A DNA stretch of 64,000 nucleotides from Puniceicoccales bacterium (GTDB taxonomy: Bacteria > Verrucomicrobiota > Verrucomicrobiia > Opitutales > JAIRLG01). The DNA lies in assembly GCA_031288595.1 (NCBI GenBank), contig JAITRB010000003.1:27861-91860 (forward strand), written 5' to 3'. The position numbers were made by a program, and so were the translations under genes. Under the pieces are notes generated by a model. That model saw only the letters and a list, made by a program, of their open reading frames with translations, searched no databases and was not told where the DNA came from. Shown here in pieces: positions 6,409-61,315 of the stretch (positions within the stretch are counted from its first letter, which is position 1; each line of letters begins with the position of its first letter).

Positions 6409-6504
6409 GCCGACTGGCTTTGCCATGGGCGAAGGGCAGCTGCCCTTCGCCCCTGGCGGCCCGCGCAGCGGGCCCGATTTCTCCGAAATCGAAAGCCAGT
6501 CGGC
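6409..6504 (+). repeat. Cloverleaf palindromic repeat CLR-A, copy A2
   Basis: Outer stem gccgactggcttt/aaagccagtcggc. H1 is ggcgaagggcag/ctgcccttcgcc (perfect). H2 is ggcccgc-gca-gcgggcc. H3 is cgatttc-tcc-gaaatcg. Confidence 0.85.
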
Positions 6505-20354: not shown

Positions 20355-20453
20355 GGGCTGTCTTTGCAAGGGGCTCCGGAGGGCAGCTTATGCCCTCCGG
20401 ATCCCCTTGAGGCCCGCGCAGCGGGCGATTCCTTTGGAATCCAAAGACAGCCC
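20355..20453 (+). repeat. Cloverleaf palindromic repeat CLR-A, copy A4
   Basis: Outer stem gggctgtctttg/caaagacagccc. H1 is caagggg(c)tccggagggca-gctta-tgccctccgga(t)ccccttg. H2 is gcccgc-gca-gcgggc. H3 is gattcc-ttt-ggaatc. Confidence 0.85.
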
Positions 20454-22410: not shown

Positions 22411-22510
22411 GCTTAGCGCCTTTGAGCCCCCAGGGGGGCTCATGCCCGCTTCGCGGGCTGCGGATGAAAAAATGAAAATTTTCATTTTTTCATTCGCAAA
22501 GGCGCTAAGC
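22411..22510 (-). repeat. Cloverleaf palindromic repeat CLR-A, copy A5 (inverted order)
   Basis: Outer stem gcttagcgcctttg/caaaggcgctaagc is a perfect 14 bp. H3 is gagcccc-cagg-ggggctc. H2 is gcccgc-ttc-gcgggc. H1 is gcg(g)atgaaaaaatgaaaa/ttttcattttttcat(t)cgc. Confidence 0.85.
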
Positions 22511-24305: not shown

Positions 24306-24372
24306 TTGCTTGCGGGAGCAGAGTTCTATTGCCGTCGATTATGCCGGAAAATCTGAACCCCTTGCTCCTCAT

Positions 24373-24475
24373 TTCGCCGCCTTTGCGGGGAGAAACATGG
24401 AAAGAACCCTTTCCATGTTTCTCCCCGAGGCCCGCGCAGCGGGCCGGGAGCCCTTCGGGCTCCAAAGGCGGCGAA
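24373..24475 (+). repeat. Cloverleaf palindromic repeat CLR-A, copy A6
   Basis: Outer stem ttcgccgcctttg/caaaggcggcgaa is a perfect 13 bp. H1 is a 19-bp perfect stem, cggggagaaacatggaaag-aacc-ctttccatgtttctccccg. H2 is ggcccgc-gca-gcgggcc. H3 is ggagccc-ttc-gggctcc. Confidence 0.9.
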
Positions 24476-24548
24476 CCCGCCCTGAATCCTGAATCACCGC
24501 TCGAGCTTCTCCAGGGGAAAGGGACTCGCAGGGAGTGGAAAAGTTTTT

Positions 24549-28065: not shown

Positions 28066-28280
28066 GGGCCGGCATACTACTCCCTCCTCGATTTTAACAA
28101 GAGCATTGTGGATGGAGATGTACAGGATCTCTGCCTCTTGCAGCTTTTTCTCTCATCGGCGGCAAGAGTTGATCGCTAACAGGAGCAAGCGCGGCTTCGG
28201 GATCTTCTTGGCTAAGACCGACGGGAAGGGAAATTTTCCGCATCCATGAGCATTTTTTTTAAACTGTGTAAGGGGAAATC

Positions 28281-28958
28281 TCACGCGCGTTCCCTCTCCT
28301 TTGACTCCGCCGTTCTCTTCCCTTCATTGGCGATAGCCCAAAGGTAGAGAGAAGCGGTGCTGCCGCAAGGGCTGTAGCGCCGACAGTACATTTGAAACTG
28401 TTCCTTTGTAAGGCCTTCGAGGCCGTAGAGACGCATCAGGCCATGGCGGATGCCCAGGTCATTCCAGGAAACGATGTCGGGGCGACGGTAGGAGAAAAGG
28501 AGCAGCATTTCAGCTGTCCAGGGGCCAATCCCTGGGCAAGCGGTCAAGGTCCGAATGAGCTCCTGGTCACTGAGCTTTCGGAGATCTTCCAGATCCAGTA
28601 TTCCGCCAGCAACCCGTTCGGCAATGCCCCGGATGTACTGGACCTTGCGCTCGCTCAGACCACAGGAGCGCAGATGAGAGGGATCGATGGCCTGCAGGGC
28701 TTTGGCCTCCATGGAAGGACAGAGAGCGCAGAGGCGCTCCCAAATCACGCGAACCACTTTCCTGGATAGCTGCTGTCCGGCGATACTTCTGATGAGCGCG
28801 GCGAAGGGATCGAGCACAGGCCTAGGCCACTCCAGTTGACCGAGACGTTCTATTACCCTACCCAGGAGAGAATCCTGTTTCCGGAGATAGTCGAGGGCAT
28901 CGGGGCTGCACAAAGTCTGGGGCCCCTTGGAATCCGAGGCTGTTCGGTGTTGGGTCAT
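28281..28958 (-). CDS. HhH-GPD DNA glycosylase (AlkA / 3-methyladenine glycosylase II-like)
   Basis: IAGQQLSRKVV, LTACPGIGPWTAEMLLLFS (HhH-GPD) and DLGIRHG are present. Confidence 0.75.
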   Translation of the reverse strand: MTQHRTASDSKGPQTLCSPDALDYLRKQDSLLGRVIERLGQLEWPRPVLDPFAALIRSIAGQQLSRKVVRVIWERLCALCPSMEAKALQAIDPSHLRSCGLSERKVQYIRGIAERVAGGILDLEDLRKLSDQELIRTLTACPGIGPWTAEMLLLFSYRRPDIVSWNDLGIRHGLMRLYGLEGLTKEQFQMYCRRYSPCGSTASLYLWAIANEGKRTAESKERERA

Positions 28959-28971
28959 AAGTTTCTGCCTT

Positions 28972-29062
28972 CCTCGCCAGCGATCCCAAAACTTTTAAGT
29001 TTTGCTGCTGCGCTCCGCGCAGCAGGCGCTGGGCGGGAGCCCAGCGCGGATCGCTGGCGGGG
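28972..29062 (-). repeat. Cloverleaf palindromic repeat CLR-B, copy B1
   Basis: Outer stem cctcgccagcgatc/gatcgctggcgggg. Hairpins are caaaactt-tt-aagttttg, ctgctgcgc-tcc-gcgcagcag and gcgctgggc-ggga-gcccagcgc. It matches the reverse complement of B3 at 89 of 91 positions. Confidence 0.9.
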
Positions 29063-30419
29063 CCGTCGTTTGCCCTTTTTCCTGCCGCTCCCGCTTCAGC
29101 TGCTTCCAGTGCTCCAGTCGCTCCGCAATGCTCGCTTCAGCCCCCACCTGTTTGGGGAAGTAAAAGGTTTTTGGCTGCAGCATGAACTCCTGTCCGGAAA
29201 TATTTTCCTCAAAATCGTGACTGTAGCGGTAGTCCTGAGATTGGCCCAGTTGCTTGCCGATGGCCGTGCTAGCATCGCGCAACCACAGCGGTACCGCCTG
29301 TGTTCCTTCCTGACGGATGCTCTCCCGAGCCCTGTTCAGGGCGAGGTAAGTGGAATTGCTCTTGGGAGCAGTGGCGAGGAAGACGGTCACATGGGCCAGG
29401 TTCAGAGCGCATTCCGGCAGGCCGACGCGTTCACAGGCATCGAAGCAGGCGGCGGCCAGAGGCAGGGCCCGGGAATCGCCTAAACCGACATCCTCGGAGG
29501 CCGCGATGAGCAGCCGGCGGGCGACGAAGCGCGGGTCTTCGCCACCCTCCAACATCTTGGCCAGCCAGTAGAGGGCCGCATCCGGAGCGCCTCCGCGGAT
29601 GCTCTTGATGAAGGCGGAAATGGTATTATAATGCTCATCCTCGTCCGCGTCATAGCGAATCTGCCTCTCTTGGGCAAAGAGCGCCAGGTCGTCGAGGCCC
29701 AGTTCCCTTCCCATGGGAAGGCTCATGACAAGGGTTTCCAACGCATTCAGGGCCCGACGCAGGTCACCATCGCAGAATCGGGCGAGTTGGAGAAGAACTT
29801 CCGGCCCAGCCGAGCACTGGGTGTTCCCCAGACCCCGGATCTTGTCCTGAAGGGCCAGGACTAGTACAGCGACGACCTCGCCCTCGGAAAGTGCTTCCAA
29901 ATGGAAGAGCTGGCTGCGACTCAGCAGCGGAGGGATGATGGAGAAGCCGGGGTTGTGCGTCGTAGCGCCGAGGAGCCGGACACAGCCGCTTTCGAGATCA
30001 GGCAGGAGAAGGTCCTGCTGGGCCTTGTTGAAGCGGTGAATCTCGTCGATGAAGAGGAGGGTCGAGCACCGGAGATTTCTTCGGGCCGTCTGGAGGATTT
30101 CCCGCAGCTCGCTGACATTGGATGATACGGCATTGAGGGGGACGAGTTCGAGCTGTGTCTCCCGGGCGATGACTTCGGCCAGCGAGGTCTTGCCGCAGCC
30201 GGGTGGGCCGTAGAAGAGAAGGCTGCCGAAGGAGTTCTGACGGATGAGCTTCGGCAAAAGGCAATCCTCGCCCAAAATCTGCTGCTGGCCCACCATTTCT
30301 TCCAGACGGCGTGGCCGCAGCCGGGTGGCCAGTGGCACATAGCGCCGCAGGCCTCCATTCTCCTCATCCGCTGAGTTCTGAGACCACCAGTCCCCATCTG
30401 CCGGAGGAGAATCTTTCAT
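28995..30419 (-). CDS. rarA: Replication-associated recombination protein A (RarA/MgsA AAA+ ATPase); last ~22 codons lie inside repeat B1
   Basis: It has Walker A GPPGCGKTSLA, LLFIDEIHRFNK and the C-terminal MgsA domain (DEHYNTISAFIKSIRG, YRYSHDF). Confidence 0.9.
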   Translation of the reverse strand: MKDSPPADGDWWSQNSADEENGGLRRYVPLATRLRPRRLEEMVGQQQILGEDCLLPKLIRQNSFGSLLFYGPPGCGKTSLAEVIARETQLELVPLNAVSSNVSELREILQTARRNLRCSTLLFIDEIHRFNKAQQDLLLPDLESGCVRLLGATTHNPGFSIIPPLLSRSQLFHLEALSEGEVVAVLVLALQDKIRGLGNTQCSAGPEVLLQLARFCDGDLRRALNALETLVMSLPMGRELGLDDLALFAQERQIRYDADEDEHYNTISAFIKSIRGGAPDAALYWLAKMLEGGEDPRFVARRLLIAASEDVGLGDSRALPLAAACFDACERVGLPECALNLAHVTVFLATAPKSNSTYLALNRARESIRQEGTQAVPLWLRDASTAIGKQLGQSQDYRYSHDFEENISGQEFMLQPKTFYFPKQVGAEASIAERLEHWKQLKRERQEKGQTTAPPAIRAGLPPSACCAERSSKT

Positions 30420-30434
30420 GAGAGAGGAAGGAGA

Positions 30435-31094
30435 TCAGGCTCGAACATGGGGATTGTGCCGCTTTTCCTGAAGAATGGAACTCAGCGGGCCATGGCCCGG
30501 GACGATGCAGGTCTCGTCCGGTAGGGCATACAGTTGTTCTCGAATGCTCCGGAGCAGGCGCTCTTCATCCCCACCTGGGAGGTCACTACGCCCGATGCTG
30601 TCCGCGAAGAGGGTATCGCCGACAAAGGCGATGGAGATTTGAGGGAAAACATAAGCAAAACTGCCCGGGGAGTGCCCGGGAACGTGCAGAGCTCTGAGGG
30701 AAAGTGTGGGAAAAATTTCACAAAGTTCTCCATTTACCAGCCAATGCCCTATCCGGCAAGGAGCTAGGCAAGTTTTGGGGCCGAAGGCCTCCATGATTTC
30801 CGGATGTCGGAAGAAAAGTTCATCCCCTTTGCCGGCCCATAGGAGGGCCTGCGCATCGGCAAAACGCGAGGCATCGGCCATGTGATCCCAATGGCCATGC
30901 GTCAGGAACAGCTGCGTCAGCGTCCACTCGGATGGCGAGAAGTGGTTTTGGGAAAAATTCCAGCTGTCGGGAGGCGCATCCACCACGGCGAGGCGATGGG
31001 CCTTCTCGTCGAGGATGAAGCCGACATTGGTCCCCAGTGGGCCGATTGGCTCAAGACAGAGGCAGAAACGTTCATCCGAAAAAAGGGTCTTCAT
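30435..31094 (-). CDS. MBL-fold metallo-hydrolase (glyoxalase II-like)
   Basis: The THGHWDH metal motif is present, plus HVPGHSPGS and GDTLF. The protein is 219 aa. Confidence 0.8.
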   Translation of the reverse strand: MKTLFSDERFCLCLEPIGPLGTNVGFILDEKAHRLAVVDAPPDSWNFSQNHFSPSEWTLTQLFLTHGHWDHMADASRFADAQALLWAGKGDELFFRHPEIMEAFGPKTCLAPCRIGHWLVNGELCEIFPTLSLRALHVPGHSPGSFAYVFPQISIAFVGDTLFADSIGRSDLPGGDEERLLRSIREQLYALPDETCIVPGHGPLSSILQEKRHNPHVRA

Positions 31095-31213
31095 ATTCGG
31101 AACAACGGCAGAGTCGCTAAGTTAGCTAAAGGTCTCGAAATTTCAAGGCGAGAGGGAAAAGACTTGATTTGTTTTTTATTTGAGCTGGGTGGGCTGAACC
31201 TTCGCTGTCATTT

Positions 31214-31312
31214 AGGCTGCCGCCTTTGCGCGCGATGGGGATGAAATTTCATCCCCCTCGCGCGTTGTCCGCAAAGCGGACGGAGCCCGAAGGGCTCCAA
31301 AGGCGGCAGCCT
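31214..31312 (+). repeat. Cloverleaf palindromic repeat CLR-A, copy A7
   Basis: Outer stem aggctgccgcctttg/caaaggcggcagcct is a perfect 15 bp. H1 is cgcgcga(t)ggggatgaaa/tttcatcccc(c)tcgcgcg. H2 is the variant gtccgc-aaa-gcggac. H3 is ggagccc-gaa-gggctcc. Confidence 0.9.
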
Positions 31313-31435
31313 CGCCGCAAAAGCGGAGATGCCATCCGGATCTTCATTCCTTTTATTGGAGTGCAGTAGACCGAAGTACGGAGCCTCGGTCAGGCCATTG
31401 CCTTTGGGAGGAAAGACCTTTATCTCTCGCGAGAA

Positions 31436-32242
31436 ATGACCTTATCGGAACAGCATCAGTCGGGAAAATATCCGCTGACGGCGCTCGTCATCGCCTCCAA
31501 CGAGGAGAGAAACATCGGGCGCTGCCTGCGGAGTGTTGGGGACTGGGTTGCCGAAAGCCTCGTCGTGGTTAACGACTGCACGGATGCGACGGTACGTGTG
31601 GCAAAAGCCCTGGGAGCCAGGGTGCTGGAGCATACCTGGGAGGGCTATGGGGCCCAGAAGAATTTCGGCAGTGCTCTTGCCACACAGAGCTGGATCCTTT
31701 CCCTCGACGCCGATGAGGAAATTTCTCCAGAGCTGAGGTGTTCCATCCAAAAATTCCTTTCGCAGAACAGCTCCAACTATGCCGCTGCCTATTTCCAGCG
31801 CATGGTCTGTTTCCAGGGCCGGTGGATTCGCCATGGAGACTGGTATCCGGATGAGCAGCTGCGGCTCTACCGGAAGGACAGGGGTCGCTGGACGGAGCAT
31901 GCCGTGCACGAGCACCTGGAGGTGAAAGGAAGGATAATGCGCCTTCGCGGCCCCCTCCACCATTACACTTACCGCTCGCTACGGGAGCAGGTCCAAGTGG
32001 GCTTGAATTATGGTGAGCTCTGGTTGCGGGATCGAAAACTGCGGCCGGTCTGGGTCTTCGAGATCCTGGCTCGGGCGTTCTGGAGATTCTTCAGGGGCTA
32101 TCTACTGAAGTTCGGCTTCCTCGATGGATTTCTGGGACTCTACATCGCCCTGAGCCAGAGCTTTCTCGTTTTTTATCGCTACACGAGTTTGCGGGAATGT
32201 TATGAGGAGAAGCGTTGGGGCCAGGGAGAGAGAATGTCTTAA
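31436..32242 (+). CDS. Family-2 glycosyltransferase (LPS core type, KdtX/WaaE-like)
   Basis: LTALVIASNEERNIGRCL and ILSLDADEE (DxD) are present. It lies immediately upstream of waaA. Confidence 0.7.
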   Translation: MTLSEQHQSGKYPLTALVIASNEERNIGRCLRSVGDWVAESLVVVNDCTDATVRVAKALGARVLEHTWEGYGAQKNFGSALATQSWILSLDADEEISPELRCSIQKFLSQNSSNYAAAYFQRMVCFQGRWIRHGDWYPDEQLRLYRKDRGRWTEHAVHEHLEVKGRIMRLRGPLHHYTYRSLREQVQVGLNYGELWLRDRKLRPVWVFEILARAFWRFFRGYLLKFGFLDGFLGLYIALSQSFLVFYRYTSLRECYEEKRWGQGERMS

Positions 32243-32273
32243 TTTTTAGGGGGAATTGGATGGTTTGGGCATT

Positions 32274-32365
32274 GGGACTGCCTTTGCGCCGAAGCCCCCT
32301 AAAAGGGGGCTTCGGCGAGGCCCGCCTTCGGCGGGCCGCTTCCTGCGGAAGCCAAAGGCAGTCCC
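32274..32365 (+). repeat. Cloverleaf palindromic repeat CLR-A, copy A8
   Basis: Outer stem gggactgcctttg/caaaggcagtccc. H1 is cgccgaagccccc-taaaa-gggggcttcggcg. H2 is ggcccgcc-ttc-ggcgggcc. H3 is gcttcc-tgc-ggaagc. Confidence 0.9.
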
Positions 32366-32472
32366 CAAAACAGCTAACCGCTGAGGTCCAGTGCCCAGGA
32401 AACCACTCCTCTGCTTGCCTGGAGCCTATTTTAGCCTCGCCCCTTGGGGCAGGTTCCGGATATTGCCCCCGG

Positions 32473-33777
32473 ATGATCTTCGTCTACCGCCTCCTGTACC
32501 CGCTGCTCTGGTGCCTGTCGATGCCGTATTTCCTCCTGAGGCGCCTGAAGCGTAGGGGCTATGGGCGCCGCTGCTGGCAACGCTGGGGATGCTACGAAAA
32601 ATCCCTATCGGAAAAATCTTCTGACAAGAGGCGCATCTGGTTCCAGGCGGTCAGCATCGGCGAGCTTAAGGCCATCGATCCTCTGCTCCGCCACTTGGCT
32701 AGAGATCCTCGATTGGAGATTTTTCTGAGCATCTCCAGCAGCAGCGCTTACCGGATGGTGGAAAGGGATTACGCTTCTCTGCTCCTGGGCTATGCCTGGT
32801 TCCCCTGGGACTTTTTCCCGGTCATGAGCGCAGCTTGGGCGTACATTCGGCCTGACCTGGCCATCCTGAGCGAGGAAGAGCTCTGGCCGGAATTTCTCAC
32901 CCAGGCCGAGCAGCATAGGGTTCCGGTTTTCCTGGTCAATGGGCGCCTGTCGGAACGCTCCTGCCGCCGCTACCGGTATTTTCCCTTTTGGAGCCGATGG
33001 CTATGGCGGCATCTTTCTTGGATAGCGCTGCCGTCACCGGCCGAAGCGAAGAAATTCAAAGATCTAGGAGCACCGGAGGGGCTCCTGACGGTCATAGGGA
33101 ATTTAAAGGGCGACCGGCTAGCTCCTTCGCTGAGCCAGGAGGGGTGCTTGCTCCTGAGAAAAGAGCTCGGGTTTGCACCGAATGACCTCGTCCTGATCGG
33201 TCTGTCGACCTGGCCCGGTGAGGAGGCCCTGCTCCTGGAATGGCTGGGGCGCCTGCGGCGTGAGGAGCCTATGCTGTCCCTGCGATTGCTCCTGGTCCCC
33301 CGCCATGCGGAGCGCGGGAGGGAAATCGCAAAACTGCTCCAGCGCAGTTCTTTTTCCTGGTATCGGCGCTCGGAAGGACCTGGCTTAGCTGGGGCCGACG
33401 TCGGGCTGGTCGACACGACGGGAGAGCTGGAACAGCTGGCCTTAGTGGGCGATCTCGCCTTTATCGGCAAGAGCTTATGTCGGCATCGCGGCGGACAGAA
33501 TCCTCTCGACGCGGCCTTTGCGGGTCTGCCTATGGTCTATGGGCCCCACATGGATAATTTCAGAACGCTGAGCGCGGCGCTGGAGAGAGAAGGGGTGGCC
33601 TGGGGAGTGCACGACCCAGAGGAAGTCTTCGAAAGGCTCAGGTGGCTTCTGAAAAATCCTGCGTTGCGGCGGGAAATATCCTCCCGTCTTCGGAGATGGA
33701 CCTCCAGACAGGCCGGAGCTACGGAGAGGGTTTTGGAGAAGATCCTCCAGCACTTTGGGCTTGAAAATGAGAGCTGA
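32473..33777 (+). CDS. waaA: 3-deoxy-D-manno-octulosonic acid (Kdo) transferase
   Basis: MIFVYRLLYPLLW..., IWFQAVSIGE, LLVPRHAERG and GGQNPLDAA are present. The start is moved to ATG 32473 because the track's 32215 start reads through repeat A8. Confidence 0.85.
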   Translation: MIFVYRLLYPLLWCLSMPYFLLRRLKRRGYGRRCWQRWGCYEKSLSEKSSDKRRIWFQAVSIGELKAIDPLLRHLARDPRLEIFLSISSSSAYRMVERDYASLLLGYAWFPWDFFPVMSAAWAYIRPDLAILSEEELWPEFLTQAEQHRVPVFLVNGRLSERSCRRYRYFPFWSRWLWRHLSWIALPSPAEAKKFKDLGAPEGLLTVIGNLKGDRLAPSLSQEGCLLLRKELGFAPNDLVLIGLSTWPGEEALLLEWLGRLRREEPMLSLRLLLVPRHAERGREIAKLLQRSSFSWYRRSEGPGLAGADVGLVDTTGELEQLALVGDLAFIGKSLCRHRGGQNPLDAAFAGLPMVYGPHMDNFRTLSAALEREGVAWGVHDPEEVFERLRWLLKNPALRREISSRLRRWTSRQAGATERVLEKILQHFGLENES

Positions 33778-33814
33778 ACCCCCTCGCTCGAAGAGCGACT
33801 TTTTTCTCGGTTCT

Positions 33815-34789
33815 ATGGAAACTCTCTCCGACCTGCTGCGGCGCATGGCCGACCTACAGATCCTCGTCATTGGGGATGTCATGCTGGATCGCTACATCTC
33901 CGGTGAGGTGTTCCGCCTCTCGCCCGAGGCACCGGTGCCGGTGATTGCGGTCGAGGACGAGCGCCATGTGCTTGGGGGTGCTGCAAATGTCGCTCATAAT
34001 CTCTCTGCTCTGGGCATTCGGACCAAGATCTGGGGAACTTGGGGACGAGATGCTTCGGGACTCCTCTTGGAGAATTTATTGCAAGAAGCCCAGATTGATC
34101 CCGTCGATGGCAGTGCGATTCCTGGAATACAGACCATTCTCAAGACGCGCATCGTGGCACGGCAACAGCAGCTCTGCCGCCTGGATCGGGAGGAAGCACC
34201 AGAGCGTTACCGGAAGGATTTTGGACAAGTCCTGACTATTGCCCTGCTCGAGAAGATCTTGGCCGAAGTCGATGCGGTGATCCTCTCCGACTACGCCAAG
34301 GGAGTTATCGATCAGCCCTGCGTCGACTTCGTCGCCAACTGCGCCCGAAAGGGGCAGAAGATTCTGGCCTGGGATCCTAAGCCGAAGCACGCGCTGCGTT
34401 TCCCTTATCTCACGCTCATGACCCCCAATCGTGCGGAGGCCTTCGCCTTAGCCGGCGAACCGGAAGAACATCGGCAGTTTCCGGCGGAGCGCATCAGCCA
34501 GAAGATTTTTCAATGCTATCATCCGGAATATCTGCTCATCACCCTGGGAGAGGAGGGTATGTTGCTGAGTCGTCAGGGTGAGCTGATTTCCCGCATCCCG
34601 ACCTGTGCGCAGGAGGTCTTCGATGTTTCGGGAGCGGGCGATACGGTGGTGACTTTCCTGACGGCGGCACTGGCAGCCAAGGCCTCACCGGAAGAGGCGA
34701 TTCATCTAGCCAATCGGGCGGCTGGTCTCGTCGTGGCGAAACGGGGAACGGCGGTGGTGACGCCGGAGGAGCTCAGGGGCTCGTTTTAA
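33815..34789 (+). CDS. hldA: D-glycero-beta-D-manno-heptose-7-phosphate kinase (RfaE domain I / PfkB family)
   Basis: ILVIGDVMLDRYISGEVFRLSPEAPVPV, GGAANVAHNL and DVSGAGDTV are present. The start is moved to ATG 33815, after the waaA stop. Confidence 0.75.
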   Translation: METLSDLLRRMADLQILVIGDVMLDRYISGEVFRLSPEAPVPVIAVEDERHVLGGAANVAHNLSALGIRTKIWGTWGRDASGLLLENLLQEAQIDPVDGSAIPGIQTILKTRIVARQQQLCRLDREEAPERYRKDFGQVLTIALLEKILAEVDAVILSDYAKGVIDQPCVDFVANCARKGQKILAWDPKPKHALRFPYLTLMTPNRAEAFALAGEPEEHRQFPAERISQKIFQCYHPEYLLITLGEEGMLLSRQGELISRIPTCAQEVFDVSGAGDTVVTFLTAALAAKASPEEAIHLANRAAGLVVAKRGTAVVTPEELRGSF

Positions 34790-34831
34790 ACTTTGAAAAT
34801 TTCCCCTAGCTCCCATAAAGGAAAGGAGCAT

Positions 34832-36007
34832 ATGGTCATCAAACCGAGAATTCGTGGCTTCATCTGCGTAACGGCCCATCCGGAGGGCTGCCGGGAGCAC
34901 GTCCGGGAGCAGATGGCCTATGTCCAAAAGCAGGGTGTGATTTCCGGAATGCCGAAAAAATTTCTCATCATCGGTTCCTCCACTGGCTATGGACTGGCGA
35001 GCCGCATCGTGGCGGCCATGGGCTGTCGGGCGGACAGCATCGGCGTGTTTTTCGAACGGCCAGAAGAGGCGGAACATCCAGCTTCAGCCGGCTTCTACAA
35101 CGCACGGGCACTGGATGCTTATGCTCGAGCTGAAGGCCTGCTGTCCGAGAGCATCAATGGCGATGCGTTTTCCGATGCGGTTAAGGAAGAGGCTATCGAG
35201 CTCATCCGCCGACATCTGGGGCAGGTGGAGGCCATCATCTACAGCCTGGCCTCCCCACGGCGTACGGATTCCAGAACCGGCGAGACCTACCGCTCGGTGC
35301 TGAAGCCCATCGGCCAACCCTTTCACGGCAAGACCGTTCATACCGATAAAAAAGAGATAGGGGAAATCCATCTGGAGCCTGCCAGCGAGACGGAAATTCG
35401 CGAGACCATCCGGGTCATGGGAGGCGAGGATTGGCGGCGCTGGCTGGAAGCCCTGCGTACGGCCGGCGTCCTTGCCAGAAATATTCAGACCTGGGCCTAT
35501 TCCTATATCGGACCCGAGTTAACTCGGCCCATCTATGCCGAGGGGACGATGGGGCAGGCGAAACGGGATCTGGAAGAGACAGCCCGGTGCATCACGGATG
35601 ATTTATCGGGTCTTGACGGTCGGGCCTTCATCGTCATCAACAAGGCCGTCGTGACGCAGGCCAGCTCGGCAATTCCGGTCGTGCCGCTCTACATGTCCAT
35701 TCTCTTCAGAGTGATGAAGCAGAAGGGCCTGCACGAGGATTGCATCCAGCAAATGGATCGTCTCTTTCGCGAACAGCTGGCCCAGGGGGAACAGGCCCTC
35801 CGCGACGCCGAAGGCCGCATCCGCCTGGATGATTGGGAGATGCGCCTCGATGTGCAGGAAGAGGTGAGGAAAATTTGGCCGCAAATCACGACCGAGAACC
35901 TGGAGGAGCTTTCCGATTTTGCCGCTTACCAACAGGATTTCCTGAAACTCTTCGGCTTCGGCTTTCCCTACGTGGACTACGAAGCGGATATCCCTCTGAC
36001 CCATTAA
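34832..36007 (+). CDS. fabV: Enoyl-ACP reductase FabV (trans-2-enoyl-CoA reductase family)
   Basis: MVIKPRIRGFICVTAHPEGC and LIIGSSTGYGLASRI are present. SD AAAGGAAAGGAG lies before ATG 34832. Confidence 0.85.
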   Translation: MVIKPRIRGFICVTAHPEGCREHVREQMAYVQKQGVISGMPKKFLIIGSSTGYGLASRIVAAMGCRADSIGVFFERPEEAEHPASAGFYNARALDAYARAEGLLSESINGDAFSDAVKEEAIELIRRHLGQVEAIIYSLASPRRTDSRTGETYRSVLKPIGQPFHGKTVHTDKKEIGEIHLEPASETEIRETIRVMGGEDWRRWLEALRTAGVLARNIQTWAYSYIGPELTRPIYAEGTMGQAKRDLEETARCITDDLSGLDGRAFIVINKAVVTQASSAIPVVPLYMSILFRVMKQKGLHEDCIQQMDRLFREQLAQGEQALRDAEGRIRLDDWEMRLDVQEEVRKIWPQITTENLEELSDFAAYQQDFLKLFGFGFPYVDYEADIPLTH

Positions 36008-36109
36008 GGAGATCGGGGCCTTGGAAGGTCTCCATGGTCGCCTCTTACTGCTGCCTCCGTAAGGATCATGGTCTGCTTAAAACTTAGGGGCATGGCTAGC
36101 GCCCTTGTT

Positions 36110-36205
36110 CTCCCCGCCAACGATCCGCGCTGGGCCAAAGGCCCAGCGCCTGCTGCGCAGAGCGCAGCAGCAAAGCTTAAAAGCTTTGGGATCGTTGGTG
36201 GGGAG
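36110..36205 (+). repeat. Cloverleaf palindromic repeat CLR-B, copy B2 (diverged, with paired substitutions)
   Basis: Outer stem ctccccgccaacgatc/gatcgttggtggggag. Hairpins are gcgctgggcc-aaa-ggcccagcgc, ctgctgcgc-aga-gcgcagcag and caaagctt-aa-aagctttg. Confidence 0.9.
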
Positions 36206-36365
36206 GACTGAGAGCATCCCCAAAGCCTTATAAGGAGAACAAGTGAAGACTTCCCTCTCCGAAGAGAATCGGGCAGAGGAGTACTTTTATTAAAATCACA
36301 CTTTTTTCCGCCACTTCACGTTTTACGAAAGTTTGCTCGTTGTTTCATTAATACTTTTCAGCCTT

Positions 36366-37664
36366 ATGCTGGAATTGCGCTCGGGGCAGATTCAAATTCA
36401 GCGGCAGGTCATGGTTCCGGCTCTGGTCCATTCACTGCATTATCTGCAGTTGCCGTGGCCGGAGCTAGAACTGGAGCTGCGGCAGCTCTGGGAAAGCAAC
36501 CCGTGTATCGACCTCATCGTTTCACCGAGAGAGGAGGGAGAAATGGGCTGCAGAGCGGCTCCGGCGACGAGAGAAGGGAGATGGGAGGAGAATCTAGCTG
36601 CTCAGGAGTCGTTGGAGAACCATCTGGCCCGTCAGGTGCCGGAGCTGGGAGAGGAGGAGAAGAAAATTTTTTCCTTCCTCATCTCGCATCTGGACGAGCG
36701 CGGCTATCTGAAGGGATCAACGGAAGAGCTGGCTCGAGCAAGTCCCTGGACGGCTGAGAACCTGGAATCCGTGCGGGAGATCCTATGTTCGCTGGAACCT
36801 AAAGGGATCGGAGCCCGGGATATCGTCGATTGCTGGCTGGCGCAGATGGCGAAAGAGCGGGCCCCGCTACGGGAATTTCTGCTGCTCAATCGGGATGACC
36901 TTCTGGCCAAGCGCTATGGCCGCATTCTTCGGCGGATGCATTGGGATCGTCGACAGCTGGCTCATGCCTTGCAGGGATTGCGCAGCTTGGCGACGGCCCC
37001 ACTGAGGACTTGGCAGGAGAATGAGGCTGTACTGCGCATGCCTGATCTCTATTTTTCAAAGGACGGGACTGGAAACTGGAATTTGCACCTGGCCTCAGAA
37101 TCCTATACGCTGCGCTGGAGCGAGGGGTACAAGGATTGGTTGGCCGATGAGGAGCAGCGGAGCGACCGAAGGGCCATGGCCTATTTTCGTACCCAGCGGC
37201 AGCTGGCCAAGCGCTGGATGCACGCGCTATCGCGGCGAACGGCGACGTTGCGGCGTATCGGCGAGTTTATTTTGAAGGAGCAGCGCCCGTTCTTCGAGGA
37301 GGAAGATCATCCGCTGCGAGCCTGCTCCCAGAAAGATGCGGCGGGAGAGCTGGGGCTGAATCCAGCTACGCTCTGTCGAGCCCTGCGGGATAAGTACGCT
37401 GCCTTGCCCTGGGGAACGCTGGCTCTGGTCGATTTTTTCCCGGGCTCCTGGAGGGGCAGCGGCTCGGATATCCCCATCCCGCAGATTCGCCAGAAGCTCG
37501 ACGAGTGGATTGCGGAGGAGGACAAAGAGGATCCTTTGAGCGATAGGGTCCTTGCGAAAAGATTTCGGGAGGAGATGGGTTGGCCCATTCCCCGTCGAAC
37601 CGTGGAAGCCTATCGCCGGCGCTGGGGGATTGCCTCTGCCAACGACCGCAGATATGGCCTGTAG
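36366..37664 (+). CDS. rpoN: RNA polymerase sigma-54 factor
   Basis: It has the region I MLELRSGQIQIQRQVMVPAL and a C-terminal RpoN box, PRRTVEAYRRRWGI. The start is moved to ATG 36366. Confidence 0.85.
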   Translation: MLELRSGQIQIQRQVMVPALVHSLHYLQLPWPELELELRQLWESNPCIDLIVSPREEGEMGCRAAPATREGRWEENLAAQESLENHLARQVPELGEEEKKIFSFLISHLDERGYLKGSTEELARASPWTAENLESVREILCSLEPKGIGARDIVDCWLAQMAKERAPLREFLLLNRDDLLAKRYGRILRRMHWDRRQLAHALQGLRSLATAPLRTWQENEAVLRMPDLYFSKDGTGNWNLHLASESYTLRWSEGYKDWLADEEQRSDRRAMAYFRTQRQLAKRWMHALSRRTATLRRIGEFILKEQRPFFEEEDHPLRACSQKDAAGELGLNPATLCRALRDKYAALPWGTLALVDFFPGSWRGSGSDIPIPQIRQKLDEWIAEEDKEDPLSDRVLAKRFREEMGWPIPRRTVEAYRRRWGIASANDRRYGL

Positions 37665-37666
37665 CC

Positions 37667-39043
37667 ATGCTGAATCCGGAGATTTGGCAGAAGTTCACAG
37701 CGGGGCAGTGGGTCAGGGGCAAACTGCCGCCTGTGGCGGGTCCCTTCTGCCACGACAGCCGCCGCTGTCGAGCGGGAGAGATCTTTCTGGCCCTTAGAAC
37801 CGAACGGACGGATGGACACGCCTTTGTGGCTGACGCGCAGCGCCGAGGGGCGCTGGCCGCCATCGTGGAATGTTACCGGGAAGAGCTATCCCTGCCGCAA
37901 TTTCTCGTCCCATCTGTCCTGCAGGCGGCGCAGGCCCTGGCCCATGCCCATCGGCGGCAATGGGGAGCAAATGGTCTCCGTCCTCTGATAGCCATCGGTG
38001 GAAGCTATGGCAAGACCACGACGAAGGACATGCTGGCGCTGCTTCTGGGTCCCCACACCTTAGCTACCCATGGAAATGAGAACAATATACTGGGCATATC
38101 TCTGAACCTAAGCCGGCTAGGGCCGGAACATGCCCAGGCCGTCGTTGAAATCGGCATTGACCATCCTGGGGAGATGGCGCTCGCTTCGGCGATGACGCGG
38201 CCCGAGCTGGGAGTGATGACGGGCATCGCCCCCGTACACGCCATCCACTTCCGCTCACTGGAAGAGCTTGTAGAGGAAAAACTTGGCCTTCTGCGCGACA
38301 TTCAGGCATCGGGTGGGAAAATCTACTTCTCCGCCTCTTGCCTGCTCCAGAGTCCTTTTCACGCTCTGGCCAACGCTGCGACCATCCTCGTCTTTCGAGA
38401 GGAGAAGCACTTGGTCCTGGGCTTCCCCTCGCTTGTTTCTTGCGAGCTGCGGGAATCCAGCTCGGAGCTCCGACTCAGCTTTGAAAGAACTGGTGAGGAA
38501 GCCTATTCCATCCCTTCCCTGTCGCAGGGTCAGGTTCGGAGCCTGGCCCTAGCACTCTGCGTGGCGAGGGACAGAAGATGCTCTCGAGAGGATTTACAGG
38601 AGCGTCTCCGGTTGTGGCAGCCCCCTTTGCATCGCGGGCAATGGAAATCATCTTCCTTGGGACGCGTCTACCTCGACTGCTACAATGCCAATCCCGTCAC
38701 CATGCAGGACGCGGTGGATTTCTTTCACCGGAAAACTGCTGACGAAAGGCGTGTTTGGATTCTGGGTGGCATGCGGGAATTGGGAATTTTTTCAGAGGAG
38801 GCCCATCGGCGTCTGGGCCGAAGCTTTCCACTCCGGACCGGTGATGCTGTCTTGGGAGTTGGTCGAGAGATGGAGGGCTGCCTGGAGGCCATGCAGAATC
38901 GCACCATAGCGGACGTCGAACTCGAGTATTCGGAGACGGGCGAAGGGGCTAGGGAGTGGCTTTGTTCCCATCAAGCATGCTTTTTCGTCAAAGGAAGCCG
39001 CTACTATGCCCTGGAACAGCTCTTCGAAGGCCTCTGGAACTGA
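37667..39043 (+). CDS. murF: UDP-N-acetylmuramoyl-tripeptide--D-alanyl-D-alanine ligase
   Basis: IAIGGSYGKTTTKDML, the Mur ligase middle domain and YLDCYNANP are present. ATG 37667 lies 2 nt after the rpoN stop. Confidence 0.85.
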   Translation: MLNPEIWQKFTAGQWVRGKLPPVAGPFCHDSRRCRAGEIFLALRTERTDGHAFVADAQRRGALAAIVECYREELSLPQFLVPSVLQAAQALAHAHRRQWGANGLRPLIAIGGSYGKTTTKDMLALLLGPHTLATHGNENNILGISLNLSRLGPEHAQAVVEIGIDHPGEMALASAMTRPELGVMTGIAPVHAIHFRSLEELVEEKLGLLRDIQASGGKIYFSASCLLQSPFHALANAATILVFREEKHLVLGFPSLVSCELRESSSELRLSFERTGEEAYSIPSLSQGQVRSLALALCVARDRRCSREDLQERLRLWQPPLHRGQWKSSSLGRVYLDCYNANPVTMQDAVDFFHRKTADERRVWILGGMRELGIFSEEAHRRLGRSFPLRTGDAVLGVGREMEGCLEAMQNRTIADVELEYSETGEGAREWLCSHQACFFVKGSRYYALEQLFEGLWN

Positions 39044-39061
39044 TATCTGGGCGCTTTGGGG

Positions 39062-39152
39062 CTTCGCCAGCGATCCGCGCTGGGCTCCCGCCCAGCGCCT
39101 GCTGCGCGGAGCGCAGCAGCAAAACTTAAAAGTTTTGGGATCGCTGGCGAGG
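39062..39152 (+). repeat. Cloverleaf palindromic repeat CLR-B, copy B3
   Basis: Outer stem tcgccagcgatc/gatcgctggcga. Hairpins are gcgctgggc-tccc-gcccagcgc, ctgctgcgc-gga-gcgcagcag and caaaactt-aa-aagttttg. Confidence 0.9.
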
Positions 39153-39180
39153 AAAACAGAGAACGACTTCTGGAGGGAAG

Positions 39181-40221
39181 ATGCATTGGGCTTCGTTGAG
39201 TGAAGAGCCTTGTCAAAGGAGAAGAAGCTTGCAAAAAGGACTCTCTTTGTCGGAGGCCATTCGAGTCGAATCTCTGAGCAAGCGCTATGGGAAGCTCATC
39301 GCGGTGGATGGGATTTCCTTCAGTGTCCAGGCGGGCGAAGTCGTGGGGTTTCTGGGCCCCAATGGGGCAGGCAAGTCTACGACGCTGAAAATCCTTGCCG
39401 GTTTATTGGAGGCAGAGGCAGGACGAGTTGCCCTTTTCGGCCAATCGGTAGCTGAAAATCCCCGCATCGCCAGTGCCCATATAGGCCTGATGCTGGAGAA
39501 TAACCCCTTACCAGGGAAACTGCGGGTCGGTGAGTACCTGCGCTTCCGGGCACGGATGAAAGGCGTCGCCTCGGAGAGCGTTTATCAGCATGTCGAAAAG
39601 ATCATGCGCTACTGCGACCTCTACCACAAGGCGCGGCACCGGCGCATCACCTCACTTTCCAAGGGCTTCCGCCAGCGGGTTGGGGTGGCGGAGGCCCTTT
39701 TGGGTAGTCCGCAAATCGTCATCCTCGATGAACCGACTATTGGCCTAGACCCGCACCAGGTTCTACTCTTCCGCCAGCTCATCGAGGCCTTTCGGAGCCA
39801 CTACACTTTCGTGATTTCCAGTCACATTCTTTCCGAAATCGAGGCCATTTGCGACCGCATCCTCATCCTCCACCAGGGTCGCTTGGTGGCCGACGGCAAT
39901 ATCGTCCAGCTGAGAAGGGAATTCGCGCCGGAGGCGACCCTAGTTCTGCAGCTGTCGGGGGATGCCCGCTCACTTCAGGCCTTTGAGCAGCGCTACCCAC
40001 AGTGGAACTACCGCCGGCTCAAGGCGGACTTATTGGCCGATACGCAGCAGATGGCCATCGATTTCAAGGATTGCCTGGAGGAAAGGCGTGCCGTATGGGA
40101 GGCGATTTTTTCTTACCGCGACTGGAAGGTGTTGGGCCTGGAGGAAAAAAGGGCGACGCTGGAGGACATTTTTCTGGCGGCCACGCGGCGCCATTGGGAT
40201 GAAAAATCGCTGAAGGGATGA
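39181..40221 (+). CDS. ABC transporter ATP-binding protein (ABC-2/export type)
   Basis: It has Walker A GPNGAGKST, signature LSKGFRQR and Walker B IVILDEPT. The exact start is uncertain. Confidence 0.8.
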   Translation: MHWASLSEEPCQRRRSLQKGLSLSEAIRVESLSKRYGKLIAVDGISFSVQAGEVVGFLGPNGAGKSTTLKILAGLLEAEAGRVALFGQSVAENPRIASAHIGLMLENNPLPGKLRVGEYLRFRARMKGVASESVYQHVEKIMRYCDLYHKARHRRITSLSKGFRQRVGVAEALLGSPQIVILDEPTIGLDPHQVLLFRQLIEAFRSHYTFVISSHILSEIEAICDRILILHQGRLVADGNIVQLRREFAPEATLVLQLSGDARSLQAFEQRYPQWNYRRLKADLLADTQQMAIDFKDCLEERRAVWEAIFSYRDWKVLGLEEKRATLEDIFLAATRRHWDEKSLKG

Positions 40222-41020: not shown

Positions 41021-42031
41021 TCAGAATGGGAAACTCGGGTGTTCCAGTGCCCTCATGGGATGGCTGGGCAGGACGCTTCCCCAGGGGAAAGAATGTCCGA
41101 GCAGGAAGGAGGTAACAGGCATGCATTTTCCTCCAGGGATCTGAATCTCTCTTAGGAACAAGTACTTCCCATCGCCGGCGACAATGGCAGCCTGACGAGG
41201 GGGGATGGATAGCAGGGTTCCTGCTTCCTTGTCGCAGAAAGATGATGGACCCACATCCGTCGAGCAGATTTTATAAATCCTATCGCCGAGCTCAAAAATA
41301 CAGCCAGGCCGTGGGCTCAGCGCGCGAATCCGCCGGTGCAGAACTTCTGCCGGCGCGTGGAAATCCAGGAATCGGTCGCGGGTCTCGAGTTTCCGGCAGT
41401 AGCTGACTTTGCTGCTATCCTGCGGATGGTATTCGGCCGTACCCGACAGCAATTGCGGCAGAAATTGCTCAGCCAGGGATCGGGCCGCATGGCTCAGCTT
41501 GGCCGTTAGCTCGGTCTGGGTATCGAAGAAATCGATGGGGACAGAGAGCGAACCCAGGCAATCCCCAGCATCCATGGCCGCGGTGATTTCCATCAGGCTC
41601 ACGCCTGTTTCGGCGGCCTCCGAGGCCAGGGCCGCTTCCGTTGGGGTCGCTCCGCGGAAGCGCGGGAGCAGGGAGGCATGGAAGTTGAAAATGCCCAGGC
41701 GTGGGCATTCACGAATGGACTTCCCTATCATCTGCCCATAGGCCATGACGAGGAGCAACTCACAGGACTGTTGCTTCAACCATTTCAACGTCCCTTCATC
41801 CAACTTCTCAGGCCGATGGAGAGGAATTTTTCGCTCCAGGGCCCATTGGGCAACCAGGGTCGGTTTTGAGCTCTTTCCCCTTCCGCTAGGTCGATCGGGT
41901 TGGCTGATGATGCCCCTTAGGCGTAGGTGCTGGGCCAGCACGTCTTCCTGATGGAGGAGATCCAACAGCGGCAGGGCGATGGAATGGGAAGCGGCGAAGA
42001 TGACGGAGGGAATGCTCTCAGGCTTGGGCAT
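41021..42031 (-). CDS. fmt: Methionyl-tRNA formyltransferase
   Basis: SQPDRPSGRGK and FNFHASLLPRFRGATP are present. The start is moved to ATG 42031 because the track's 42163 start reads through repeat C1. Confidence 0.85.
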   Translation of the reverse strand: MPKPESIPSVIFAASHSIALPLLDLLHQEDVLAQHLRLRGIISQPDRPSGRGKSSKPTLVAQWALERKIPLHRPEKLDEGTLKWLKQQSCELLLVMAYGQMIGKSIRECPRLGIFNFHASLLPRFRGATPTEAALASEAAETGVSLMEITAAMDAGDCLGSLSVPIDFFDTQTELTAKLSHAARSLAEQFLPQLLSGTAEYHPQDSSKVSYCRKLETRDRFLDFHAPAEVLHRRIRALSPRPGCIFELGDRIYKICSTDVGPSSFCDKEAGTLLSIPPRQAAIVAGDGKYLFLREIQIPGGKCMPVTSFLLGHSFPWGSVLPSHPMRALEHPSFPF

Positions 42032-42057
42032 TTTTTGCTCGGTTGTGCAGATTTTGC

Positions 42058-42152
42058 GCGACGGCCCCTTGACAGAGTCAAGGGCAAGCTTCCCGCTCCG
42101 CGGGAAGCTTGCGGTCAGCGCCCGGCGAAGCCGGGCGCTGACTGGCCGTCGC
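42058..42152. repeat. Cloverleaf palindromic element CLR-C (singleton in this window)
   Basis: Outer stem gcgacggcc/ggccgtcgc. Hairpins are ccttgac-aga-gtcaagg, gcaagcttcccgc-tcc-gcgggaagcttgc and gtcagcgcccggc-gaa-gccgggcgctgac. Confidence 0.8.
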
Positions 42153-42248
42153 ATGAAGAACAAGAGAGCCTCCCCATCGATTCTTGCCCCTAGGGCTGAA
42201 AGTGGCCATTGTATACTGAGCAGTCCCCGCCTTTTTCTGAGCTCCTTA

Positions 42249-46046: not shown

Positions 46047-46150
46047 GGGTGCAGCGCCTTTAGAGGCCTTTGGGCTCTCGCCCGCTGCGCGGGCTGCGCC
46101 CAGGGAAGAAAAGAAATTTCTTTTCTTCCCTGGGCGCAAAGGCGCTGCCC
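46047..46150 (-). repeat. Cloverleaf palindromic repeat CLR-A, copy A9 (inverted order)
   Basis: Outer stem ggg(t)gcagcgccttt/aaaggcgctgccc. H3 is agag(g)cc-ttt-gg(g)ctct. H2 is gcccgc-tgc-gcgggc. H1 is a perfect 21+21 palindrome, gcgcccagggaagaaaagaaa/tttcttttcttccctgggcgc. Confidence 0.85.
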
Positions 46151-52554: not shown

Positions 52555-52610
52555 GGACTTCCCACCCAGAATTTCGGGGCTTTGCGAGACGGGAACTGCT
52601 TGGGATAGGT

Positions 52611-52718
52611 TTTTTTTCGCTGTCTTTGGAGCCCGCAGGGGCTCGCCCGCGGAGCGGGCCTCAGCGCCGGAAACAAAAGTTCCTTTTATTTCCGGCGCTG
52701 CAAAGACAGCGAAAAAAA
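52611..52718 (-). repeat. Cloverleaf palindromic repeat CLR-A, copy A10 (inverted order), flanked by T7/A7 runs
   Basis: Outer stem tttttttcgctgtctttg/caaagacagcgaaaaaaa is a perfect 18 bp. H3 is gagccc-gcag-gggctc. H2 is gcccgc-gga-gcgggc. H1 is cagcgccggaaa(c)aaaag-ttc-ctttt(a)tttccggcgctg. Confidence 0.9.
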
Positions 52719-59306: not shown

Positions 59307-59404
59307 CTTCGCTGTCTTTGGATTCCGAAGGAATCGGCCCGCTGCGCGGGCCACGAGCTTTTCCGCAAAGGCTTCTTTGCGAAAAAGCTCGAAAGACAGC
59401 GAAG
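59307..59404 (-). repeat. Cloverleaf palindromic repeat CLR-A, copy A11 (inverted order)
   Basis: Outer stem cttcgctgtcttt/aaagacagcgaag. H3 is gattcc-gaa-ggaatc. H2 is ggcccgc-tgc-gcgggcc. H1 is cgagctttt(c)cgcaaag-gctt-ctttgcg(a)aaaagctcg. Confidence 0.9.
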
Positions 59405-59483
59405 GAACTCCGCCTCACCTCGTGCCGCCCTTCCCTCCAGGACTCTGCTTGACTCTAGAGGGCCCATCCGGTATGCTACGGAC

Positions 59484-61125: not shown

Positions 61126-61229
61126 TTTTGTCGCCTTTGGAGCCCAAGGGGCTCTCGGCCCGCTGCGCGGGCCGTTGGGGAGAAGCAGGGAAAAGCCTTT
61201 TCCTGCTTCTCTCCACAAAGGCGACAAAA
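61126..61229 (-). repeat. Cloverleaf palindromic repeat CLR-A, copy A12 (inverted order)
   Basis: Outer stem ttttgtcgcctttg/caaaggcgacaaaa is a perfect 14 bp. H3 is gagccc-aag-gggctc. H2 is ggcccgc-tgc-gcgggcc. H1 is ggggagaagcagg(g)aaaag-cc-cttttcctgcttctctcc, with one G-T pair and one bulge. Confidence 0.9.
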
Positions 61230-61315
61230 AAACACCAACTCCTCTCTTAAATTCCCGAAATCTTTCCCCGAACTTGGGCTTGCCAGGCCAGGATGAAAGG
61301 TTTAGGAAATAGGGA

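Follow-up and report, generated by a model that had tools for sequence, protein, structure and literature searches.

CLR-B, a nested-palindrome repeat with four-way-junction architecture at gene junctions of Puniceicoccales

A 64,000-nucleotide stretch of the genome of a Puniceicoccales bacterium (GenBank assembly GCA_031288595.1, contig JAITRB010000003.1, positions 27,861 to 91,860; hereafter the window) carries three copies of a repeat, CLR-B, in which an outer stem encloses three hairpins (H1, H2 and H3). Two of the copies, B1 and B3, are nearly identical and lie in inverted orientation around a 10-kb block of genes; the third, B2, differs from them by paired changes. What kind of element is this, how did it come to occupy its sites, and what keeps its helices perfect? 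We propose, with moderate confidence, that CLR-B is a nested-palindrome repeat, closest in kind to the repetitive extragenic palindromes (REP) with their bacterial interspersed mosaic elements (BIME) and to repeats of the MITE type (miniature inverted-repeat transposable elements). It would belong to a larger and older superfamily of the Puniceicoccales lineage, spread by replacement and have its helices kept by templated correction and/or selection. CLR-B is not a demonstrated RNA gene, nor is it a demonstrated inversion switch.

Copies of CLR-B and their paired changes

The copies in the window and their parts are as follows.

28964..29064, minus strand: copy B1, rarA / HhH-GPD glycosylase junction, co-directional with both genes; covariance-model score 131 bits
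B1 outer stem, minus-strand reading: CGCCAGCGATCC/GGATCGCTGGCG
B1 H1, minus-strand reading: GCGCTGGGC-TCCC-GCCCAGCGC
B1 H2, minus-strand reading: CTGCTGCGC-GGA-GCGCAGCAG
B1 H3, minus-strand reading: CAAAACT-TAAA-AGTTTTG, then the 3' tail GAGGAAGGCAGAAAC
36102..36213, plus strand: copy B2, fabV / rpoN junction, co-directional with both genes; covariance-model score 123 bits
B2 outer stem, up to 20 bp: GTTCTCCCCGCCAACGATCC/GGATCGTTGGTGGGGAGGAC, including one G·T wobble
39060..39160, plus strand: copy B3, murF / ABC-ATPase junction, co-directional with both genes; covariance-model score 130 bits

Allowing 3 mismatches at most, a 28-nt pattern of the family matches exactly these three sites in the window, against 0.00 expected in shuffled sequences. 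A preliminary description of this DNA had reported the three positions and had counted 89 of 91 identical positions between B1 (28972-29062) and the reverse complement of B3 (39062-39152); the sequence of the window bears out both statements. The two mismatches lie at the outermost, distal end. The junction core is 100% identical, the inverted cores amount to 88 perfectly identical nt, and the pair appears in a repeat search with arms of 101 nt and 96% complementarity (28964-29064 versus 39060-39160). The repeated unit exceeds the coordinates first given, the outer stem reaching 20 bp in B2. At its 3' side lies a purine-rich tail (..GACAGAGAC), and five of the copies also have a 5' leader, RAAACRAC. 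B3 begins 17 nt past the murF stop codon and ends 20 nt ahead of the next ATG.

All the differences of B2 that had been described are present. The outer stem reads CCAACG/CGTTGG instead of CCAGCG/CGCTGG as in B1 and B3, a G-C pair replaced by A-T, and in H3 CAAAACTT/AAGTTTTG becomes CAAAGCTT/AAGCTTTG, an A-T pair replaced by G-C. The H1 loop is AAA in place of TCCC and is closed by an additional C-G pair, and the H2 loop is AGA in place of GGA.

Using an exact-pattern scan of 185,579 species-representative genomes, we found the family in one other genome, the metagenome-assembled genome (MAG) JAITKE/Pcl387_bin38, also of Puniceicoccales (Verrucomicrobiota). Seven of its contigs match, and an eighth, truncated copy was found on inspecting contig L008; the copies are dispersed at unrelated loci of this MAG. 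A search for RarA homologs recovered L011 (GCA_031259625.1), with a RarA 90% identical to that of the window, DNA ~86-88% identical and two CLR-B copies. In total, 13 copies are known from three Puniceicoccales genomes (3 in the window, 2 in L011, 8 in JAITKE). The positional orthologs of B1, B2 and B3 are L011a, L008a and L008b, respectively, and L008a shares the H1 and H3 variants of B2. One further hit of the genome scan, L002, was rejected as a chance H2-like hairpin in an alphaproteobacterium. The pattern CGATCCGCGCTGGGC..GCCCAGCGC retrieved no family member from the JGI metagenome contigs, only two chance matches in coding regions, and plasmid and phage collections gave zero CLR-B matches.

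CLR-B is absent from four more distant relatives (L012/L013, L014, L015 and L016), in which RarA is 80-84% identical and, for L012-L014, the DNA ~65-76%. When the 13 copies are used to build a covariance model, it scores them at 84-134 bits and detects no additional CLR-B in the 156 kb of DNA examined; other four-way-junction families are weakly picked up by their architecture. We take CLR-B to be a young sequence family, restricted to one clade. Several MAG contigs end in or beside a copy (L001 3852-3942 and L008 1-84, both at a contig end; L007 7425-7520, 95 nt from the end), which indicates that these repeats fragment short-read assemblies.

Each window copy folds, on either strand, into the outer stem and three hairpins with no unpaired bases at the junction. 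The folding energies of B1-B3 as RNA range from -70 to -82 kcal/mol (z -8 to -13, with 0 of 200 shuffles as good), and folding as DNA gives z values of -9 to -12. In the alignment of the 13 copies, with a core of 38 bp, 98.1% of core cells form standard pairs. Seven of the 38 core pairs change on both sides, with at least one such pair in every helix. Shuffles give a mean of 2.8 ± 1.1 two-sided changes and none of 500 reaches 7; when the structure is slid by 1-3 columns, 0-1 remain. The number rises to 13 when the variable distal stem is included. Paired changes also separate orthologs: B1 and L011a differ by an A-T to G-C pair in the outer stem and a T-A to G-C pair in H2, B2 and L008a by two adjacent outer-stem pairs, and B3 and L008b by a T-A to C-G pair in H1. 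Uncompensated states are few (G·A in L011b, A·A in L008b, T·T in L007, T·G and G·A in L004, G·T in B2). The G·A of L011b looks like an intermediate of the double change in L011a.

The stems show a per-site diversity of 0.051, the H2 and H3 loops 0.088, the H1 loop 0.61 and the flanks 0.65-0.76. Conservation is far stronger in the element than in its flanks, and the flanking genes are 80-89% identical in nucleotide sequence. The preliminary description had proposed to weigh unpaired stem changes against loop changes; the former are rarer than the loop rate.

In three MAG copies H1 is longer through an extra nested palindrome (L001 3865-3895, L005 ~5385-5440, L006 ~2790-2835). An example is TTCAAAGCCC-TTG-GGCTTTGGA, which resembles the hairpin modules of the CLR-A-type elements described below. 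This suggests insertion of a module or growth of palindromes at hairpin tips.

Occupied junctions, replacement and the 10-kb block

CLR-B is one of several families with this architecture. A scan for an outer stem enclosing at least three hairpins, combined with covariance-model and BLAST searches, detected at least 17 four-way-junction elements in the window. All 17 are at gene junctions, in units of ~85-110 nt that lie in short spacers between housekeeping genes, and they share and swap hairpin modules. The CLR-B elements start at 28975, 36117 and 39064 in this set. The other 14, each with an outer stem and three perfect hairpins, are located at

1408-1502
6409-6504
16133-16231
20355-20453
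22411-22510
24355-24480
31214-31312
32274-32365
42058-42152
46051-46148
52609-52715
59307-59405
61126-61230
62324-62406

Most of these 14 are of the CLR-A type, defined by an outer stem ...GCCGCCTTTG/CAAAGGCGGC..., a CTTTG/CAAAG junction and a middle hairpin GGCCCGC-NNN-GCGGGCC that is combined with variable short and long hairpins. The element at 42058 forms one distinct family. CLR-A and CLR-B have no obvious internal homology, and the same four-way architecture is also found in the distant relatives. The density is ~1 element per 3.8 kb, fairly regular along the chromosome. About 27% of the gene junctions of the window carry an element, CLR-B included: 12 of the 42 co-directional junctions, 3 of the 9 convergent ones and 1 of the 9 divergent ones, a distribution that is REP-like. 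At the GT2/waaA junction, where the window has a single element (32274-32365), L011 has a 189-nt composite (657-845) in which one junction element is seemingly nested in another.

The sites of CLR-B in the window are occupied by other elements in the distant relatives. The rarA/HhH-GPD junction of B1 holds CLR-A-type elements in L012 (11426-11528), L014 (11431-11527), L015 (~4994-5098) and L016 (~2072-2176). The murF/ABC junction of B3 holds one in L012 (1680-1780), and two lie downstream of fabV in L014 (3670-3762 and 3839-3946). In the block shared with L012, all 3 junctions occupied there are also occupied in the window; with roughly 13 junctions in the block, of which the window occupies 5, a hand calculation gives a hypergeometric p of ~0.035 (C(5,3)/C(13,3)). 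The simplest history is that CLR-B probably took over from resident elements in one or more ancestors of the clade of the window, L011 and JAITKE.

Comparison of copies within and between genomes points to exchange of sequence. Counted over 81 columns of the core, there are 0 differences between B1 and B3, 4 between B1 and L011a, 4 between B3 and L008b, and 6 between B2 and L008a. The two copies of L011 differ from each other at 1 position and have a private H2 substitution in common. Non-orthologous copies are thus closer to each other than orthologs are, which suggests gene conversion or repeated replacement and not recent insertion into empty DNA. B2 and L008a keep common derived states in H1 and H3, indicating that this copy stayed distinct since the genomes diverged. 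The near-identity of B1 and B3 had been read as the mark of a recent copy; it is better explained by gene conversion or replacement, as both sites are occupied in sister genomes (L011a, L008b) and hold CLR-A-type elements in distant relatives. Judged by their sequences, B1 and B3 appear to have been homogenised by conversion.

These data bear on the possibility that CLR-B is a conventional MITE, its outer stem serving as terminal inverted repeats for a transposase encoded elsewhere, its copies arising through cut-and-paste or copy-in transposition and B1 or B3 being a recent product of it. The size of ~100 nt and outer inverted repeats of 12-20 bp fit such an element (the outer stem, a MITE feature, measures 10-21 bp in the 11 complete copies), as do the dispersal of copies over unrelated loci of the MAG and the presence of L011b at a junction that is unoccupied in the window. 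Several sequence families of similar architecture would be expected if one enzyme recognised them all. However, there are no direct repeats around the 11 complete copies, which lack sharp ends and whose distal stems vary yet stay complementary. Moreover, all three sites in the window already held another junction family in outgroups, those of B1 and B3 are occupied in sister genomes, no transposase was seen among the partly scanned open reading frames (ORFs) of the window, and plasmids and phages yielded no homolog. We consider the conventional MITE an unlikely explanation.

The counterpart of the L011b junction in the window (28066-28280, minus strand) has no intact element. It contains AGCGATC ... 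GCAGAGATCC fragments, which could be a decayed remnant, although they align poorly. Here and in the comparison of L001 with the window at ~47.9 kb, filled and empty sites are too diverged for insertion boundaries to be placed. The 5' flank that L011b has in common with the copies at the end of rarA was considered as rarA DNA copied along with the element and rejected, as the RAAACRAC leader is also present at the unrelated loci L006 and L007. The leader therefore belongs to the unit itself in one subfamily.

The block between B1 and B3 extends from rarA to murF, as had been described.

29065..39059: block bracketed by B1 and B3, containing rarA, an MBL-fold hydrolase gene, a GT2 glycosyltransferase gene, waaA/kdtA, the hldE kinase domain, fabV, rpoN and murF

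It also holds B2 and two CLR-A-type elements (31214-31312 and 32274-32365). The preliminary description had seen in the inverted pair a potential substrate for inversion of this 10-kb segment, and B1 and B3 might be the recombination sites of an invertible segment, either a programmed switch or one flipped frequently by RecA. Perfect inverted cores of 88 nt are long enough for homologous recombination, the identity of B1 and B3 implies exchange between the copies, and small-scale flipping between inverted arms does occur in this superfamily of repeats. B1xB3 inversion is possible in principle. The synteny comparison shows no fixed inversion in any relative examined. L012 and L013 match the window in block order and orientation over the whole length; since they have no CLR-B, the arrangement of the window is ancestral. 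L011 is collinear across the B1 junction (MBL-fold hydrolase-rarA-[CLR-B]-HhH-GPD) and L008 from fabV to the B3 copy (fabV-[CLR-B]-rpoN-murF-[CLR-B]). No recombinase or invertase gene is found among the genes adjoining B1 or B3, and the block holds essential housekeeping genes with no obvious alternative promoters. An inversion switch is thus very improbable.

L014 (GCA_031255915.1) is collinear only from fabV through rarA and beyond, and is rearranged on the far side of fabV. There, at 3570-4324, alaS follows fabV instead of rpoN-murF, and two junction elements lie at the rearrangement junction, the same junction at which the window has B2.

B1 overlaps the 3' end of the rarA ORF, which has no stop codon ahead of the repeat and hence reads on into CLR-B.

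28995..29064, minus strand: last ~23 codons of the rarA ORF (APPAIRAGLPPSACCAERSSKT, then stop), encoded by B1, with the TAA of the H3 loop as stop codon

The Pfam MgsA_C domain of RarA ends at residue 439 of 474. RarA has 474 aa in the window, 481 aa in L011, where the same fusion of rarA and CLR-B is found (positions 3147-3216), and 453-458 aa in relatives without CLR-B. Further ORFs, or 5' extensions of ORFs, cross G+C-rich repeats at 39004-39234 (minus strand), 28836-29483 (plus), 32215-~32400 (plus) and 42000-42163 (minus); these are probably spurious or have starts called too early. An example is waaA, where homology begins at about residue 87-90 of a 520-aa ORF.

Orientation, strand signals and the RNA or DNA level

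Can the conservation of the helices be ascribed to selection on RNA? CLR-B might be a cis-acting structured RNA within operon mRNAs (a stabiliser, a processing site for RNase III or RNase E, an attenuator or a form of punctuation), with the junction kept by selection at the RNA level. The orientation of the copies is in keeping with such a role. All five independent copies between co-directional genes (B1/L011a, B2/L008a, B3/L008b, L011b and L001) are in sense orientation, which is weak evidence (p~0.03, one-sided); in L004 and L006, both convergent sites, the element lies antisense with respect to the nearest gene. GC skew is positive throughout 1-40 kb of the window, with B1 on the minus strand and B2 and B3 on the plus strand; the unchanged sign of the skew indicates that CLR-B orientation tracks transcription and not replication. 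CLR-B is also polar, with its 3' tail and 5' leader, it shows paired changes in all four helices, and its H2 and H3 loops are fairly conserved. Finally, junction elements persist at the same junctions through the turnover of sequence families.

Other signals expected of an RNA are weak or absent. In CLR-B the wobble pairs lean 5:1 towards the sense strand, a ratio short of significance. For the 13 junction elements of the window that lie between co-directional genes, the comparison of G·U with A·C gives equal sense and antisense counts of G·U (12 vs 12), so that there is no RNA-strand signal, and the strand-asymmetry test supports no conclusion on selection at the RNA level. Elements of the CLR-A type are seen in either orientation, and the one at the rarA/HhH-GPD junction appears as its reverse complement in L016 relative to L015, and likewise in L014 relative to L012. 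The flanks on both sides are collinear in these comparisons, so the element flipped in place, which shows recombination between its arms.

Rfam 15 contains no match to CLR-B at the gathering score, only 4 tRNAs being found in the window; below threshold, the best score on B3 is 20 bits against a cut-off of 35, and permissive thresholds yield only noise. CLR-B is not detected as a tRNA or tRNA-like structure by ARAGORN or the Rfam tRNA model; it has no unpaired junction bases and its arms are 7-12 bp. In sense orientation there is no terminator-like call and no U-tract at CLR-B, the 3' flank being purine-rich, and no sigma-70-like promoter consensus was found at the element. Its helices have neither internal loops nor conserved unpaired bases of the kind seen in ribozymes and riboswitches. 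We regard the structured RNA as a possible but doubtful alternative.

The paired changes themselves are insufficient to establish selection on RNA, because both strands fold equally well, G·U asymmetry is lacking and template switching mimics compensation. Switching between the arms of a quasi-palindrome yields "compensatory" substitutions in one step without selection, creates and maintains perfect hairpins, and inverts the spacer between the arms (PMC8794818). The earlier statement that structure and not primary sequence is maintained thus holds as a description of the pairing and its paired changes, and selection on RNA is not established by it. A reading at the DNA level is favoured by the equal folding of both strands, the lack of G·U bias, the in-place flip of CLR-A and the growth of palindromes in H1.

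A more specific proposal at the DNA level is that the four-way junction is a protein-binding or topological element, a cruciform or a mimic of the Holliday junction, comparable to the binding of IHF and gyrase by BIMEs. Both strands fold equally well as DNA into perfect helices with no unpaired junction bases, the elements are dense and fairly regularly spaced, and orientation is immaterial for CLR-A. Against this, no binding motif or partner protein has been identified, extrusion of a multi-hairpin structure from duplex DNA is unproven in vivo, and the polarity of CLR-B is left unexplained. Such a binding site is distinctly unlikely.

Relation to known repeats and meaning

In the broad sense, all 17 elements of the window are REP/BIME-like: they are multi-copy, strictly intergenic mosaics of G+C-rich palindromic modules. 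Like the REPs and BIMEs of Enterobacteria and Pseudomonas and like REPINs, they are high-copy units confined to intergenic spacers. They also resemble REP/BIME in lying often inside operons or at gene 3' ends, in being under-represented in divergent promoter regions, in being mosaics of hairpin modules that are probably co-transcribed and in forming lineage-specific families that persist at orthologous positions. REPs are single hairpins, imperfect palindromes of 20-40 bp with a conserved GTAG or CGTC tetranucleotide at one end, and the verrucomicrobium Opitutus terrae is reported to be rich in REPs of this type (PMC3733652); a REPIN is one long hairpin. By contrast, the CLR-B unit, ~100 nt (85-110 nt) with four helices, has three hairpins within a long outer stem, and the sequences of the copies contain no GTAG/CTAC or CGTC/GACG tag inside the unit.

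MITE-type repeats such as Correia/NEMIS of Neisseria, enterobacterial ERIC/IRU and RPE of Rickettsia are similar in having terminal inverted repeats and intergenic dispersal; they measure 100-170 nt, and their transcripts form stable hairpins able to affect how mRNA is processed. As with RPE, one copy (B1) is now part of a coding sequence, in the RarA C-terminus. CLR-B differs from them in that no target-site duplication, IHF site or parent insertion sequence (IS) element was found, in its perfect four-way junction instead of one long imperfect hairpin, and in its apparent spread by replacement of resident elements. Integron attC sites (e.g. VCRs), imperfect palindromes of ~60-140 nt recognised as folded single strands, likewise conserve structure over sequence and lie between co-oriented genes. 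However, the neighbours of CLR-B are syntenic core housekeeping genes and not cassettes, and it has no R/L boxes, extrahelical bases or integrase. Template switching in quasi-palindromes (the Ripley model; PMC8794818) accounts for paired changes, nested palindrome growth and in-place inversion, but it is a mutational mechanism and not a class of element, and leaves the multi-copy spread and sense bias of CLR-B unexplained.

Taken as a nested-palindrome repeat, CLR-B would have spread chiefly by taking the place of resident elements, whether by gene conversion or by targeted replacement, and not by insertion into empty DNA. Its helices may be kept perfect by templated correction from arm to arm, with template switching in quasi-palindromes as the mechanism, and/or by purifying selection acting on the formation of hairpins or cruciforms, which an element of this kind would require if it is to propagate or persist. 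Where co-directional genes lie 17-100 nt apart, the copies between them are probably co-transcribed. The most likely phenotype would then be a REP-like effect, a very stable fold in operon mRNA that would hinder 3'-5' degradation or be used as a site of processing.

Several observations weigh against this interpretation. Target-site duplications are missing around all 11 complete copies, a negative that is not absolute given their fuzzy boundaries. We infer the mode of spread with no clean alignment of a filled and an empty site, and no mobilising enzyme (RAYT or IS transposase) was identified, the ORFs of the window having been scanned only in part and no search having been made beyond it. 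The polarity of CLR-B (the 5' leader of a subset and the 3' purine tail) and its five sense copies out of five fit a role at the RNA level or one coupled to transcription; a model of symmetric DNA palindromes predicts neither. In addition, the occupation of the same sites across genera could reflect function and not inherited junk.

A bolder proposal can be made: four-way-junction elements, CLR-B included, would form an undescribed class defined by architecture, kept at specific junctions across Puniceicoccales genera despite family turnover and having a positional function, with CLR-B homing into and replacing resident elements. This function may be, for example, to punctuate operons by way of an RNase that recognises structure, or to give recombination or nucleoid proteins a DNA site resembling a Holliday junction. 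We hold a class of this kind to be improbable.

In the literature on cloverleaf or four-way-junction intergenic repeats, and on repeats of Puniceicoccales and Verrucomicrobia, we found no description of these elements. The four-way-junction architecture is likewise absent from Rfam and from the literature searched, in which bacterial repeats (REP, REPIN, BIME, ERIC, Correia) form either one hairpin or a simple inverted repeat. CLR-B, with its perfect four-way junction, is best classed as a new architectural variant of REP/BIME/MITE-like intergenic repeats. Extrapolation from 17 elements in 64 kb suggests that, if the density holds genome-wide, the lineage carries hundreds of them. Such repeats break MAG assemblies, create spurious ORFs and alter a protein terminus, that of RarA, and they could mislead pipelines for RNA-motif discovery that take covariation as proof of RNA function. 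With paired changes between orthologs, replacement of families at the same junctions and flips in place, they offer a natural system for asking whether "compensatory" changes in palindromic repeats arise from structural selection or from templated DNA repair.

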